IMG/VR virus record: IMGVR_UViG_3300046507_000506
Coordinates: 1 to 64,000 of that record
DNA length: 64,000 nucleotides
DNA from: a virus
Reading direction: 5' to 3' (one strand)
Part shown: in pieces, positions 29,538 to 35,155 of the stretch
Numbering within the stretch: the stretch's first letter is position 1
Layout of the letters: every line of letters begins with the position of its first letter
The notes under the pieces: generated by a model
The model's input: the letters and a program-made list of their open reading frames with translations, nothing else
What the model was told of the DNA's origin: nothing
Database searches by the model: none
Translations under genes and position numbers: made by a program

Positions 29538-32468
29538 TCAATAGCGCTTGATGCGGTAACGCTTGAACGCGTTGGTCGTGATTCGCTGAGACGGTGTTTC
29601 GACCACGATGTTGCTGGCCGGTACGTTCAGCGCAATCGTGGACGTCCAGCTTAGGAAGCCCTTTTTGCGATCCTCCGTCGCGCAGTAGTTTCGCAGCTCA
29701 TCGCCGCTCGCGTCCGCGTTGCAGTAGTTCAGGCTGTAGACGTCGAAAACGTGCTTCGCGCGCAGCGTCATCAGCTGCTCGTTGACCTCCTTGGAGAACG
29801 CAAGCGAGTCCGCGTCTGTGAGCTTGAAATAAGCCCCGGTGTTCTCATTCCATCCCGTCAGCCACGACTCGAACATCACGCCCGAACACGACTGGATATA
29901 GTTGTTCAGGTTCGAGAATCCCCGGTTTGAAATCAGCTTCGTGCCGGTTCGCGCCTTCAGGTTGTTCACGAGCGCAGCCATCGCGTCGCCCATCTGCGGA
30001 TACACGTCGGCATCGTCAGGCGTGTCCATGAAAATGCCGTTCATGCGGTGCCCCTTGCGGGTGTACGAAATCAGCAAGGTCTGATTCGCCGTCACCGCAG
30101 GCGTGATGCCCGCATTGAACACAAAGGCTCCCGTCTTCATGTCCATCGTGTAGTCCGCATTCTTGCGATAGATGCCCGTCACGCCATCGAGCGTGGTGAG
30201 GGTGATATCCGCGTCCGCATCAATCGGGAATTGCGCCGTATCGAACACGAGCACCGGACCTGATGAAATCGTGGCCGCCTTGACCGTGACCGCCTCGTTT
30301 GTCACGACGACCGGGCCTCCGAGCACGGTCGGCACGTAGTAGCTCATGATGCGATCCAGCCACGACGGCTTGCCCGCGTCCGCGTAGTACGCCGCCCACA
30401 CGCCATTCTGATCGGGCACGGTCGGATTGGCGATGCTGAAGTCCTGCATGTAGCCGCCATCGACCTGTTGATATTTCGGGCACTTGGTGCCCGTTTGCAG
30501 TTGGTGGATGGGCTTGTAGCTTGGGCAGGTTGCGTTCGTGCAGGCGGTGTTCGCATCCGGCCGCTGCCATTTGTTCGCCGACGTGAAGCCCGCACCGCAA
30601 GCGCCACCGGTTGAAAACGCCAGATACCCGTTCAGGCTGTCGAAGCTACAGGCCGCGCTGCAACGGCCGGTTCCCATGAAGTACATAGGTTGGGCCTGCG
30701 CACAGGTCTTGGTGCCCGCCACGGCCTGATTGTCGAATGTGCACTCGGTGCATTCGCGACCCTGATACCCGCCCTTCATGTAGTAGCTGGCATTGCCACC
30801 CGGCCCGCCACCATCGCCGACATAAGGCGCATTGGCCGAAAGGAAGTCGTACCGGTTCGAGTAGAAACCATCCTCCTCGCCTATCGAGATATAGCCGTAC
30901 ACCTCGATACCCATTGCCTGCCACGCCAGCACGTCGGCCGCGCGCGCCGCAAACGGATCGACAATCAGAATGTCGTACTGCGCGAGGGTATCGGCATAGC
31001 CCGGCTGGTAGCACACGGCATAGGTCGGAAAGCGCTCAAGCACCTCGGTGTATGCGATGTTGCTGTTCTGCCGCACGACCGCGCCGGACGAATCGAGCGC
31101 ACCCGCCACCGGCGCATCGTAGGAAAGCGAATAGCCATCGTCCGCCACATTGACCACCGGCAGCGCATACGGCTGCTGCGCATTGGCAACGATGTTCACC
31201 GTCTCGGTGATCTGCGAATAGAACGCGCTCGCGGTCCAGCTTGCCGAGACAAAAATCACGAACTTTTTGCTCGTCGTGCTCTGGCGTAACACGCAGGTAT
31301 TCGTGCCGGTCGCGGGCCATCCCGAAATCGTTGCGGTGAAAAGCTGATCCTGATTTGCATTACATGACACGGTCCCCATGAGGGTGCCGTTACCGTCATA
31401 GACGTTGAAAATCCCGTAGCCGAAATCCTGCTCGACCGTGATCGACAACGATGAACCGGTGAAGGTAAAGGAAAGCTGGTTCGACGCGCTCCCGGCTGCA
31501 TTGTTGTAGATACGCGTCACGCCGCCGGGCGCGGCCGTGTCCTTTGACCATGCACCCGTCGCGGTGATCGCGGAACTGTCCGCCGCCATTGTCACATTGA
31601 CGGCCTGGCTGATCGTTCCATTCGGGTCTTGATACAGCGCCGAGAGCGCGAGCGGAAACACCTTCTGCCCGCTGACTTCGTCGCCGGTGAAAGCGGGCAT
31701 GATGACCTGATGCACCGGCGCGCCGTCATTGAGCACGGCCGCGCTGGTTGGAGCGAGCGCAGCATTGTTCGCATCCACCACCGTGGCCGGATAGGTGAGC
31801 GAGACATTGGTAATCGCCTTGCCGCTGCGATTGACGAGGCTCAGCGTCTGCTGGTTCTGCACGAGCTTTTTGCTCGACGGCACAATCCAGACAGCGTCCT
31901 GCACGAGGTCACGGCTCTGGAAGCTGTACGTCTTGTAGCCTGCGAGCGCGAGATACGCCTCGCCGGTGCCGTTCGCATAGATCACGCAGGTATGCGGACC
32001 ATTGCTCAGGCCGTCGGCCACGAGCACATCAGCGTAGTCCGGCCCGTCTAGCTGGTAGGTTGCCGAGTCGCAGGAAACCGTGTTCGCGTAGCCAAGAATG
32101 CCGCTGATGGTCGAGGGCTGTACGCCGTCGATAAAGACCTTATGCGCGGTCCCCCATCCAAAGTCCGTATTCAGACGCAGCACGAGCGTTGTGCCGGTGA
32201 AATGGATTGTGACCGCACCCTTCAGACAGAAGGCGCGCTTTTCCTGCAACGTCGTCGGGATTGTGTTCGGGCCGCTGTCGCGCACCCAGTCGCTTGTCCC
32301 GACGTTCGTGCTCGGCGGAATGGTGAAATTGCCACTCGATAGCGAGACGCTGGCGTCATCAATGCTGGCCCACTGGGAGCGGTTATCACGGTAGTTCGTA
32401 CCAACGCCGTCCCACGTCTGACTGCTCTGGATCAACACCGCATCGGTGTATTTTACGAGCGCTGCCAT
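29538..32468 (-). CDS. Modular depolymerase: N-terminal CBM-like domains plus GH114/GH166 (PelA-like) barrel with two insertions
   Basis: YDILIVDP, YGYISIGE, GIFMDTPD, ISNRGF, GVMFES, VYSLNY motifs. Confidence 0.8.
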   Translation of the reverse strand: MAALVKYTDAVLIQSSQTWDGVGTNYRDNRSQWASIDDASVSLSSGNFTIPPSTNVGTSDWVRDSGPNTIPTTLQEKRAFCLKGAVTIHFTGTTLVLRLNTDFGWGTAHKVFIDGVQPSTISGILGYANTVSCDSATYQLDGPDYADVLVADGLSNGPHTCVIYANGTGEAYLALAGYKTYSFQSRDLVQDAVWIVPSSKKLVQNQQTLSLVNRSGKAITNVSLTYPATVVDANNAALAPTSAAVLNDGAPVHQVIMPAFTGDEVSGQKVFPLALSALYQDPNGTISQAVNVTMAADSSAITATGAWSKDTAAPGGVTRIYNNAAGSASNQLSFTFTGSSLSITVEQDFGYGIFNVYDGNGTLMGTVSCNANQDQLFTATISGWPATGTNTCVLRQSTTSKKFVIFVSASWTASAFYSQITETVNIVANAQQPYALPVVNVADDGYSLSYDAPVAGALDSSGAVVRQNSNIAYTEVLERFPTYAVCYQPGYADTLAQYDILIVDPFAARAADVLAWQAMGIEVYGYISIGEEDGFYSNRYDFLSANAPYVGDGGGPGGNASYYMKGGYQGRECTECTFDNQAVAGTKTCAQAQPMYFMGTGRCSAACSFDSLNGYLAFSTGGACGAGFTSANKWQRPDANTACTNATCPSYKPIHQLQTGTKCPKYQQVDGGYMQDFSIANPTVPDQNGVWAAYYADAGKPSWLDRIMSYYVPTVLGGPVVVTNEAVTVKAATISSGPVLVFDTAQFPIDADADITLTTLDGVTGIYRKNADYTMDMKTGAFVFNAGITPAVTANQTLLISYTRKGHRMNGIFMDTPDDADVYPQMGDAMAALVNNLKARTGTKLISNRGFSNLNNYIQSCSGVMFESWLTGWNENTGAYFKLTDADSLAFSKEVNEQLMTLRAKHVFDVYSLNYCNADASGDELRNYCATEDRKKGFLSWTSTIALNVPASNIVVETPSQRITTNAFKRYRIKRY

Positions 32469-33079
32469 TACTGAATCCCAAGGAGCTTGATTTCCACATC
32501 CAGCGTCATTGGGTTGGCATCAATGTTCGTGACGAGCACAAACAGATTGCCGGACGCAAGCGGCGGAATGAAAAAGGAGGCGTTGTCGATAAAGGCCGGA
32601 TCGGTGATCCCGCTCGACCGGTAGAGCAGCGCACCGGCCGCGCTGCCGTCATAAAACTCCAGTTCGTAGTTCTGGTTGCCGACGGTCTGATTGGTCGCCT
32701 TCACCTGCAACACGAACGAACCGAACGCCGTGCCCACGGCGAGCGTTGCATTGGCTGTTGCGCCAACGGCGGCAGCAACCGCGATAGACGGCGGCGCGAG
32801 CGTGCGCGATGCCACGCCCTCCGTTGCGGTCGAGGCCGCAAGTTGGGCGGCGGCGGCACTGTCAGAAGCCTGTTGCGCGCTTGTCGATGCGTGGCCCTCC
32901 GACGTGGATGCAGCTTGGGCGGCAGCTTCGGCGGCGGCAGCAGAGGCAGCGGCATCGCCGATCTGACCCAACGCCGTCGTCGCGGTCTGCGCAGCGTCCG
33001 TCGCCTGCGCGACAAGCGCTTTCATCGTCTTGGAAATGCCCGTAAGCTGCCAGAGCTTTATCCACTCGCCATAGTTCAT
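32468..33079 (-). CDS. Putative tailspike adaptor protein (Ala-rich coil plus beta domain)
   Basis: MNYGEWIKLWQLTGISKTMKALVAQA N-terminus shared with 28678-29100. Confidence 0.65.
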   Translation of the reverse strand: MNYGEWIKLWQLTGISKTMKALVAQATDAAQTATTALGQIGDAAASAAAAEAAAQAASTSEGHASTSAQQASDSAAAAQLAASTATEGVASRTLAPPSIAVAAAVGATANATLAVGTAFGSFVLQVKATNQTVGNQNYELEFYDGSAAGALLYRSSGITDPAFIDNASFFIPPLASGNLFVLVTNIDANPMTLDVEIKLLGIQ

Positions 33080-33346: not shown

Positions 33347-33532
33347 TTATTCGAGCGCGGTTTTCACGAGCACCGCGAGGCGTAGATACTCGCCTACCCA
33401 CTTCGGGAACCTCTGCGCGCCCATCCATCGCGAAACGGTCGTCGGATCGACGCCGAGGCGGCGCGCGAACTCTGCTTGCGTCCATCCAAGCGTGGCGAGA
33501 GAATGGGAAAAGTCGGCTGTTTTCATAGCCAT
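33347..33532 (-). CDS. Small XRE-family HTH protein
   Basis: LGWTQAEFARRLGVDPTTVSRW. Confidence 0.8.
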   Translation of the reverse strand: MAMKTADFSHSLATLGWTQAEFARRLGVDPTTVSRWMGAQRFPKWVGEYLRLAVLVKTALE

Positions 33533-33595: not shown

Positions 33596-33844
33596 ATGGA
33601 CTTACCGCAAGCTGATGGCGCTGACCCGGCCACCGTTTTCACGGCCGCACTTGCCGCCCTGTTCAGCACACACCCCGATCCTGCGGCCCTCCTGAAGGCT
33701 TGGGAGCCCGTCGCCACGTCCATCCCCCTGATGATGCTGAAGAACGGCGCTACGGACGTGCACGCGAATGCAAACGTGGTGATCGCGCAGGCACTGCTCC
33801 ATATCGCGCGAGTGAATGCAGGCGCGCCGCCACCTGTTGACTAG
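33596..33844 (+). CDS. Hypothetical protein (start MDLPQ)
   Basis: GGAGG RBS. Confidence 0.6.
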   Translation: MDLPQADGADPATVFTAALAALFSTHPDPAALLKAWEPVATSIPLMMLKNGATDVHANANVVIAQALLHIARVNAGAPPPVD

Positions 33845-33865
33845 GAAACCCGCGCTTCATACACT
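33837..33865 (+). promoter_or_regulatory. Sigma70 promoter TTGACT-17-TACACT driving the RNA array
   Basis: Predicted +1 (~33872) coincides with first base of first stem. Confidence 0.7.
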
Positions 33866-33871
33866 GGCGAC

Positions 33872-34648
33872 GCTTTCACACATGGCGGCTTGGTGCAGTA
33901 AGAGCCTGCCCCGCCAGTGCCAGCCGGTCGCGCGAGCGACGTATGCGGATAGCCGCCATTGTGAAAGCCGCTCCCATGCGGTCCAGTTAGCAAGTCGCCT
34001 TGTGCCGCTTGTCCGCATCGCTGCAATGGGAGCACCTTCAGCACGGCCGTAGCTCAGTTGGTAGAGCGCCCCTCGTATGGGGAGAGAAGTAGTCGCGAAA
34101 TGGCGGTAGCGCCCGCGCGACGATCTTCCGGTATCGGCCGGTACGCGCGCGGGTTCGAATCCCGTCGGCCGTGCTGAGGGTGAATGGTGGACGTGAAACT
34201 ATGTCCCTTACTTTGCATGCACTGACCTGCCTCTGACTGTACTGCGAATCAGACCGAGTCATCATTCACTCTCAACAGATGCGGAACCGTGGGCGGCGGT
34301 GAGTCAGTAGGGAAAGCGTCGATTGAACGATGTAGCGTTCGGCGCGGAGCCCGAAAGCAATAGACCGTGCGAGTGGTCGAGCATGCCGTTAAAGCGCAAG
34401 GTTCTGGCGCATGAGCAGGGGAAGGGCCTGCACTCTCACGCATGGCGATCGGTGGAGTACCGTTCAAGAAATCGTCAGTTCCGTGCGCTTGCGGAACCAG
34501 TCGCCATGACGTGAGAGTGATCGGATAGTGGAAAGCGCAGGCGTCACAGCCGTCTAGCAGGGTTCGATACCGTGCCCTTTCACTCTCAACGCGCGGCCTG
34601 TAAGGGTTGTACCGGCCAGCCAGTGACCCCTTAAAAGGTCCGCCGCGC
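33872..34648 (+). ncRNA. Polycistronic array of ~8 stem-closed structured RNAs
   Basis: Units 33872-33968, 33970-34033, 34035-34180, 34180-34269, 34279-34412, 34431-34519, 34512-34588, 34591-34648, each closed by ~9-18 bp stems; no credible ORF. Confidence 0.75.
34043..34173 (+). tRNA. Non-canonical tRNA-like element (Thr-CGT-like loop, 66-nt extra region, no encoded CCA)
   Basis: Acceptor ACGGCCG/CGGCCGT, D-arm GCTC-AGTTGGTA-GAGC, T-arm GCGGG-TTCGAAT-CCCGT. Confidence 0.7.
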
Positions 34649-34672
34649 ACCCTTCCCCCTCACACCACCACC

Positions 34673-35155
34673 ATGACATTTCCCTTCCGCGATACCGAAG
34701 CGGCGCTAATGGCCGCCGAAATTCGAGAGCAGATTTACGAGGATTTCCGTTCGGTTGTGGGCACGAATGAGCCCAAGCCTTATACACCGCCCGCGCCGAT
34801 GCCGACATACGAGGAAATGACCGAGCAGTTGCATCGCGCGGCGAATCCCACGCCTGCCGACGTGGCGGCGCGCATGCTCAACCAGCAAGCGCAATCCGGT
34901 GCACCGCCTTGGTCTTGGGAATGGGTGATGGGCGAACCGCTATGGCTCGAAATGCGCCGGGCAATGAAGCGCGTGAAGCGTGAAGCGCCCGCGTATGCGC
35001 CGCTGCCGGAAAGCGTCACCAAGCCGGAAGTGCTCGACCTGGTAGACCTGCGCGACGCTGGCTATGAGTTGTTGGACGTGACAGCCGACGGCGTTGTTAC
35101 GCTGCGCTCGCCCCATACCGTGCGAGCCGTCTACATGACTGCGACCATTCGCTAG
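34673..35155 (+). CDS. Hypothetical protein co-transcribed with the RNA array
   Basis: Only ORF between array and terminator; no clear SD. Confidence 0.55.
   Translation: MTFPFRDTEAALMAAEIREQIYEDFRSVVGTNEPKPYTPPAPMPTYEEMTEQLHRAANPTPADVAARMLNQQAQSGAPPWSWEWVMGEPLWLEMRRAMKRVKREAPAYAPLPESVTKPEVLDLVDLRDAGYELLDVTADGVVTLRSPHTVRAVYMTATIR

Follow-up and report, generated by a model that had tools for sequence, protein, structure and literature searches.

The DNA window analysed here comprises the first 64 kb of the 93.6-kb virus record IMGVR_UViG_3300046507_000506 (about 61% G+C) and carries, at positions 34043-34173 of the plus strand, a 131-nucleotide (nt) element in which the acceptor stem, the D arm and the T arm of a tRNA are all complete. 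The 5′ acceptor strand ACGGCCG (34043-34049), which was found with cmscan and RNAfold, pairs with 34166-34172 and is separated by U8 and A9 from the D arm GCUC-AGUUGGUA-GAGC (34052-34067), in which G15 (34057) pairs with C48 (34148). On the other side of the molecule a variable-loop remnant GCGC (34145-34148), assigned by alignment and covariation and ending with C48, leads into the T arm GCGGG-UUCGAAU-CCCGU (34149-34165; cmscan and RNAfold), which is followed by the 3′ acceptor strand and the discriminator G (34173). The Rfam tRNA covariance model (RF00005, gathering score 29) matched the element with 43.7 bits; this cmscan match (model positions 1-71) spanned the model, with the anticodon stem deleted and a long insertion added. 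When the whole record was searched, the element was its sole tRNA-like sequence, and no second copy of the insert was found in the record.

The distance between D and T arms is 81 nt (34068-34148), compared with about 22 nt in an ordinary tRNA, and these nucleotides form three hairpins, H1, H2 and H3. H1 (34069-34082, CCCC-UCGUAU-GGGG, drawn by RNAfold) is preceded by G26 and occupies the anticodon-arm position in vestigial form, having 4 base pairs (bp) and a 6-nt loop instead of a 5-bp stem with a 7-nt anticodon loop. A linker AG joins it to H2 (34086-34128, RNAfold), a long arm with the base GAAG/CUUC, the middle GUCGCG/CGCGAC and the tip GGCG-GUAG-CGCC. H3 (34131-34144) reads GUAUC-GGCC-GGUAC and has a self-complementary loop. 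Both H2 and H3 are placed between H1 and the variable-loop remnant, roughly where the long arm of a class II tRNA emerges. The acceptor helix is prolonged to 17 bp with one G-U pair (34033-34049 with 34166-34182); its 10-bp extension (34033-34042 with 34173-34182) was recognised by direct reading and by RNAfold. The CCA end is not encoded, the 3′ flank being G-CUG. For 34030-34186, the minimum free energy structure computed by RNAfold was identical to the full hand-drawn structure (-84.3 kcal/mol), with z = -5.7 relative to 200 shuffled sequences, none of which folded as well; the reverse strand folded more weakly (-74.0 kcal/mol).

Much of this architecture had been proposed in an earlier sequence-only reading. 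The canonical acceptor stem, D arm and T arm were found by sequence, cmscan and RNAfold at the positions it had assigned, its D-to-T spacing of 80 nt differs by one nucleotide from the measured value, the lack of an encoded CCA was borne out, and both the short CCC-CTCGTAT-GGG hairpin and the long GAAG/GTCGCG arm capped by GGCG-GTAG-CGCC were reproduced by RNAfold. The extended acceptor helix, given there as 15 bp, had to be corrected to 17 bp. A third hairpin does exist, although not as the CCGG/CCGG stem drawn at the time: both registers are possible in the window, and GUAUC-GGCC-GGUAC is to be preferred, since it covaries in relatives.

Such relatives were gathered by pattern scans, at first for H1 and later for the junction motifs, together with BLAST. 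The scans required AGAGCGCC, GGAG, AUCUY and the T loop, so that part of the sequence invariance among the members was imposed. About 38 distinct relatives with one common architecture were recovered. The Burkholderia-type members are four, namely the window, an 88-kb virus record related to the window's record (G001), Paraburkholderia dipogonis and a second Burkholderiaceae genome (G389); among the Burkholderiaceae species genomes searched, 2 of 401 were carriers. Members of the enteric type reside in many lambdoid prophages, e.g. in Raoultella ornithinolytica, and in P1-like phage-plasmids, including Cronobacter phage JK004 and the 89-kb plasmid unnamed5 of Escherichia coli CH468. The element of G001 is 81.5% identical to that of the window whereas the flanks are unalignable, and among the lambdoid loci, too, it is conserved as an island in neighbouring DNA that does not align. 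Rfam tRNA scores of the members ranged from about 28 to 44 bits, the JK004 and E. coli plasmid copies lying marginally below 29.

We defined the family, from the 5′ side, by a tRNA body, G26, H1, the linker AG and an H2 with a (G/A)AG...AUCUY base and, in the 3′ half, by an H3 whose loop is self-complementary (GGCC or AGCU), a variable remnant of 4-5 nt and the T arm. All of these features are present at 34043-34173 and in 33 aligned members, and the members that were found by BLAST only (JK004, the E. coli CH468 plasmid and G389) also fit the family model. Full-text literature searches returned no description of such a family and no Rfam family covers it; a preprint on the Pas sRNA (small RNA) mentions tRNA matches solely as integration sites. 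The family thus appears to have been undescribed so far.

Covariation was counted for 33 distinct sequences (3 Burkholderia-type and 30 enteric rows, which are mutually related) on a structure of 37 pairs that we specified, using five measures and 500 shuffles. Standard pairs filled 97.1% of the pair cells, compared with 86.2% in shuffled alignments and 41-54% when partners were slid against each other. Changes on both sides were seen in 21 of the 37 pairs, and not one of the 500 shuffles reached any of the five measures. The covarying pairs lay outside the constraints of the search patterns. Within the tRNA body, six of the seven acceptor pairs and three of the five T-arm pairs had changed on both sides across the family. 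H1 contained two doubly changed pairs (e.g. C-G in 19 rows and U-A in 12), its stem reading CCUCC/GGAGG or CCCUC/GAGGG in relatives. Eight of the 11 pairs of H2 were doubly changed: two of four at the base, four of five in the middle (for example C-G in 16 rows and A-U in 14) and both at the tip. In H3 this was the case for the innermost pair (C-G in 18 rows, U-A in 14). The tertiary 15:48 (Levitt) pair was G:C in each of the three Burkholderia-type rows and A:U in every one of the 30 enteric rows, which speaks for actual formation of the L-shaped tRNA core; the elbow and C74 were preserved in all 33 aligned members.

As judged from these counts, the structure is under selection, far beyond chance. 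The sequence-only reading had suggested looking in homologues for the random decay expected of a pseudogene. Compensatory changes in all three inserted hairpins were seen instead, meaning that the insert is not decaying randomly. The H3 loop is GGCC in all members except two closely related sequences with AGCU, in which both outer bases have changed together; such a self-complementary loop fits dimerisation or a palindrome at the DNA level as well as a hairpin. At the level of comparative sequence analysis it is confirmed that the element represents a real, conserved phage RNA with a tRNA body, and not an accident or a pseudogene.

When the element was examined as a potential tRNA gene, ARAGORN in default mode, a check proposed in the sequence-only reading, detected no tRNA gene, whether in the window, the entire record or the 33 members. 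Its tmRNA mode found no tmRNA in the window or the whole record, and there was no Rfam tmRNA match either. With 131 nt the element exceeds the length of standard tRNAs (about 73-93 nt). Across the family, H1 has a stem of 4-5 bp and a loop of 4-6 nt without conserved sequence (UCGUAU, UUAUGU, UUGUGU, UUUUAU, UGAA, UGGA, AGAU and AUUGA). The intron mode of ARAGORN called Arg-CCG in the window, Asp and Ile in two other Burkholderia-type members tested, Glu-CUC in most enteric members and Val in one of them, and it made no call in 11 of the 33 members. Its models contained 2-3 mismatches per 5-bp anticodon stem, and the putative intron cuts the covarying H1 helix. An intron-containing tRNA was rejected, as no single deletion restored a cloverleaf and five different isotypes were called. 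This agrees with the earlier claim that removing the insert does not restore an anticodon stem. With a variable H1 loop and no cloverleaf after any single deletion, the RNA should not be able to decode; the comparison supports the view, already taken in the sequence-only reading, that the element is tRNA-scaffolded and not a decoding tRNA. The 'Thr-CGU-like loop' of that reading raised the possibility that the body derives from a gene for tRNA-Thr (P1 trnT, for example), which was not demonstrable: the body without its insert shares 51-52 identities with P1 trnT, compared with 52-54 with the unrelated host tRNA-Gly and tRNA-Trp.

The window's element is part of a run of stem-closed RNA modules on the plus strand (33872-34650), roughly 780 nt without credible open reading frames (ORFs), and is directly followed on its 3′ side by a weak terminator-like hairpin (34189-34206, plus strand; consensus match only). 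Blocks of 14-16 nt in this run are common to G001. Several of its units share similar closing stems (CACUCUCA...UGAGAGUG), and a T-arm-like hairpin lies near 34555-34575. Upstream of the run, a sigma-70-like promoter (TTGACT-17-TACACT, 33837-33865, plus strand), whose function we infer, is predicted to start transcription near 33872; the element follows after about 170 nt, and in G001 after about 110 nt. G001 has the same -10 box and next 13 nt (ACTGGCGACGCTTTCA), in flanks that cannot be aligned otherwise. Divergent from this promoter, on the minus strand, lies the gene for a small helix-turn-helix (HTH) regulator of 61 amino acids (33347-33532; Pfam HTH_31 and HTH_3, PHROG transcriptional regulator), which shows 83% amino-acid identity to its G001 counterpart and is the sole protein neighbour conserved between the two records. 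The ORFs downstream of the element in the window and G001 could be assigned to no family, except for an unrelated resolvase and a Phage_gp49_66 protein, and none was conserved together with the element.

A sensitive cmscan of the ORF-poor array (E ≤ 10) yielded nothing beyond the tRNA and a sub-threshold mascRNA match (19.9 bits) comprising just the T arm and acceptor. As for an antisense target, no consistent match was found when complementarity of at least 8 nt to the H2 tip was sought within the same loci. By tblastn with phage P1 proteins, the record was found to encode a PacB-like terminase (35% identity) and a homologue of Lxr (61%), while the same search found no C1, Coi, Cre, Lpa or PacA. 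Since solely PacB and Lxr are common to both, 'P1-like' is a loose label here and the virus is at most a distant relative of P1.

In enteric phages the surroundings of the element could be related to known immunity regions. In JK004 it follows loxP and a promoter-operator of the P1coi/Oc1d type (TTGACAATTGCTCTAATAAA, as in P1; loxP/promoter region at L131:2660-2860) and precedes coi- and c1-sized genes; an untranslated leader of roughly 560 nt there replaces the imcA and imcB ORFs of P1. In 24 of 40 loci the element is preceded, on its own strand, by a gene for a CI-type repressor (HTH and S24 peptidase domains), and in the lambdoid loci early-left genes (PHROG 204, DUF2303/YfdQ and RdgC) lie downstream. 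Within several lambdoid early-left leaders cmscan placed a DicF-like RNA about 270-390 nt downstream of the element; the hairpins span the full model length and score 33-34 bits, the gathering score being 48 (L110:6261-6309, L098:12934-12982). RprA-like matches of 63 and 57 bits, against a cut-off of 70, were obtained in the leaders of enteric P1-like phage-plasmids (L130:2597-2699, L150:5844-5976). The Stx2a phage WGPS2 has the same leader array minus the tRNA-like unit, which marks this unit as an optional module. In E. coli CH468 plasmid unnamed5, a true tRNA-Ile gene and the gene for the Thoeris anti-defence protein Tad2 are found within 1 kb after the element. Wherever the promoter was readable, the element is located behind a putative early promoter linked to a repressor and inside RNA arrays free of ORFs.

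On this basis we favour, with moderate confidence, the reading that the element is a tRNA-scaffolded stable small RNA, non-decoding and excised by tRNA-processing enzymes. It would be transcribed early as a module within a longer leader that encodes no protein, from a promoter adjoining the phage repressor or controlled by it. The tRNA-maturation enzymes of the host would then excise it, with a predicted RNase P cut at 34042/34043 and trimming of the 3′ end, and RNase III might cleave the 17-bp extended helix. The tRNA body would serve as a handle for processing and stability, freeing a stable, roughly 130-nt RNA on which H1 to H3 are displayed, and might also set the ends of neighbouring small RNAs. 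RNase P recognises the tRNA elbow and a 3′ RCC motif; processing of the tRNA type is hinted at by the preservation of the elbow and C74 in all members, and the DicF-like RNA downstream of the element in several lambdoid loci also speaks for this reading.

Several observations weigh against this reading. In the window, a continuous 10-bp helix of 5′ leader and 3′ trailer adjoins the acceptor stem. Pairing of leader and trailer beyond the acceptor stem hinders RNase P, which should also be hindered in the window unless RNase III cleavage or unwinding came first. This leader-trailer helix stands out clearly in some enteric subgroups and in all four Burkholderia-type members (the 10-bp extension recurs in G001, P. 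dipogonis and G389), within which its -1:73 pair switches from C:G to A:U, but other enteric subgroups lack it; its z fell below -2 in only 6 of 34 members, and it was rejected as a feature of the whole family. The upstream DNA differs in two chromosomal Burkholderiaceae copies, and the early promoter is thereby documented for part of the family. Some sequence invariance (AGAGCGCC, GGAG, AUCU and the T loop) was set by the search patterns themselves. In addition, the conservation of H1, H2 and H3 is not accounted for by a mere processing handle.

Other explanations can be weighed against the same data, beginning with those that start from a tRNA gene. RefSeq PGAP labels the copy in the E. coli CH468 plasmid (L130:3003-3131) as a 129-nt 'tRNA-Met', which would imply a true decoding tRNA that is spliced or tolerates its insert, and the Rfam tRNA score above threshold speaks in the same direction. 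What likely prompted the label is that H2 ends, in most enteric members, in GG-NUCAUAA-CC, where G-C pairs close a loop of 7 nt containing U33 and CAU. This loop, however, caps an arm that has two internal loops and about 11 bp, far exceeding a 5-bp anticodon stem, and it is absent from all four Burkholderia-type members, including the window, where the tip carries a tetraloop (GUAG, AGCA, GAAG or UUGC); one enteric subgroup has UUCGCAA instead. A decoding tRNA is also difficult to reconcile with the empty ARAGORN default result for all 33 members and with intron models that are mismatched, break the H1 helix and disagree on the isotype, and a group I intron would not fit into the 66 nt of the insert; we consider this explanation very improbable. 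Even less credible is a dead tRNA gene with a small insertion, be it a decaying pseudogene or a miniature mobile element. It would explain why the body resembles ordinary bacterial tRNAs, with a D arm identical to that of many of them, and why CCA is not encoded, but not the compensatory changes in every helix, the inserted ones included, nor the conservation of the element as an island across phages of Beta- and Gammaproteobacteria, and the insert is single-copy in the record.

A different explanation is that the RNA works in cis as a leader element, acting in terminator read-through, in protection from Rho or RNases or in the control of downstream early genes, and is not released to act in trans. 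Its location would suit this, as in lambdoid phages the element fills the untranslated stretch between repressor and early-left genes, the place of nutL and N in lambda, as the coi-c1 leader of JK004 has the element in place of the imcA/imcB stretch, and as terminator-like hairpins come after it. We nevertheless regard a cis-acting role as unlikely: the module is optional, as the Stx2a leader demonstrates, it is placed differently in different phages, and such a role offers no evident purpose for a complete tRNA elbow whose tertiary pair covaries. An antiterminator of the HK022 put type was rejected, since put RNAs, two hairpins of about 70 nt that bind RNA polymerase, have been described without tRNA-like features (PMC9378689). 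A somewhat better candidate, still a doubtful one, is a decoy for anti-defence or host takeover, in which an RNA made first of all would soak up a host factor that recognises the tRNA shape, such as an immune nuclease or toxin that cleaves tRNAs or modifies tRNA ends, or a translation-initiation factor, the tRNA body acting as bait and H2 and H3 providing specificity. Its early, repressor-controlled position is compatible with such a role, as is the P1-like plasmid of E. coli, where the tad2 gene is 0.8 kb away and the tRNA-Ile gene adjoins. So is the CAU-bearing H2 tip of most enteric members, which we take to resemble the anticodon arm of the E. coli initiator tRNA. Against it, this tip is not found family-wide, given the tetraloops of the Burkholderia type and the UUCGCAA subgroup, and a defence system is not consistently nearby.

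The reading of a processed, tRNA-scaffolded small RNA can be extended, tentatively, to a natural 'tRNA scaffold' by which temperate phages would make, stabilise and present a structured RNA domain within minutes after infection or induction, the domain acting in trans on the host. Under this extension, which we think possible and not probable, the domain might act as a decoy that draws off immune nucleases or toxins directed at tRNAs, or it could be a mimic that disturbs translation initiation by means of the initiator-like CAU loop of the enteric members, and the RNA might dimerise through the self-complementary H3 (GGCC or AGCU).

Several known systems resemble parts of this picture, and the way of working proposed for the element is akin to that of other phage tRNA mimics and of phage immunity RNAs processed by RNase P. 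Among the curated families against which membership was examined, the tRNA model alone matched, and as a decoding tRNA the element fails at the anticodon arm. The closest layout is the ban leader of P1, in which the C1-controlled promoter-operator Pban/Op72 drives a leader with a 'dicF-like region', trnA, trnT, tciABC and trnI; similarly, the element adjoins a trnI-type tRNA-Ile in P1-like enteric relatives. The P1 units are ordinary 76-nt decoding tRNAs (Asn, Thr and Met/Ile2 according to ARAGORN), unlike the window's element, which is non-decoding and carries a 66-nt insert. By analogy, the ban leader is a documented precedent for the layout, with true tRNAs.

Non-decoding tRNA look-alikes have been known in phages since the stable RNAs C and D (species 1 and 2) of T4, which are 120-140 nt long and are co-transcribed and co-processed with tRNAs; we know of no function for them. 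They are likened to the element by description only, and they differ in belonging to a tRNA cluster of a virulent phage, not placed behind a repressor-controlled promoter. C4 antisense RNA of P1/P7 and the CI RNA of the satellite P4 are small RNAs through which phage-plasmids exert immunity and which RNase P cuts from a leader by virtue of tRNA-like features. The models for C4 (RF01695), c4-a1b1 (RF03163) and isrK (RF01394) gave no match at E ≤ 10 in 33800-34750, whereas they scored 83.6, 25.6 and 67 bits, respectively, in a control locus (L154), and a search of the neighbourhood revealed no antisense target of the element's loops. The control locus belongs to WGPS2, where C4 antisense RNA, isrK and c4-a1b1 matches lie at the opposite side of the immunity region (L154:37-238), i.e. 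a P1-type RNA immunity in a non-P1 phage.

Y RNAs of the YrlA type, which also occur in some phages, consist of a tRNA mimic fused to a Ro-binding stem; the two ends of the RNA are located at the equivalent of the anticodon stem, and a loop closes off the acceptor-like stem. The element has the normal tRNA topology instead, and no Y-RNA family matched in cmscan. In the engineered 'tRNA scaffold', a tRNA body carries a foreign structured insert for processing and stabilisation; in this man-made construct the insert replaces the anticodon stem-loop, while here a vestigial anticodon hairpin stays and the insert follows it.

The family is well suited for study, having a defined architecture, strong covariation and culturable carriers (JK004, enteric lambdoid prophages and P1-like plasmids), and the position directly behind a repressor-controlled early promoter is the most strategic place in a temperate phage. 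If the RNA truly were a displayed decoy or regulator, phages would have a new way of exploiting the tRNA-processing enzymes of their hosts, and engineered tRNA scaffolds would have an equivalent in nature. Annotation pipelines can mislabel such elements as tRNA genes, and phage tRNA counts and arguments from codon usage would be distorted as a consequence.

Further observations concern the surroundings of the locus and other tRNA genes. On the minus strand upstream of the window's RNA locus lie the genes for an uncharacterised 976-amino-acid protein (29538-32468, PHROG 37372) and a tail-fibre-like protein of 203 amino acids (32468-33079), which indicates that the RNA locus borders a late structural operon. 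A stretch of 24 nt, GGTGAATGCGCAGGCTGATGCGCG, which can form a hairpin with the loop GGCUGA, is identical in G001 (L106:5749-5772) and in the leader of the E. coli Stx2a phage WGPS2 (L154:2629-2652) and is situated just 3′ of a module-closing stem in both. Dozens of phage tRNA genes in the IMG/VR loci (L003-L092) have a standard D arm and T loop with 60-90 nt between them; many have in common a hairpin with ACAGCAA behind it, and CCA is encoded at the end of some; they form a separate, larger class of insert-bearing genes. In one of these loci (L005:8305-8430), a 5′ tRNA fragment with acceptor strand, D arm and the start of a Thr-like anticodon arm lies directly before a complete second tRNA-like gene and may be the leftover of an integration site.

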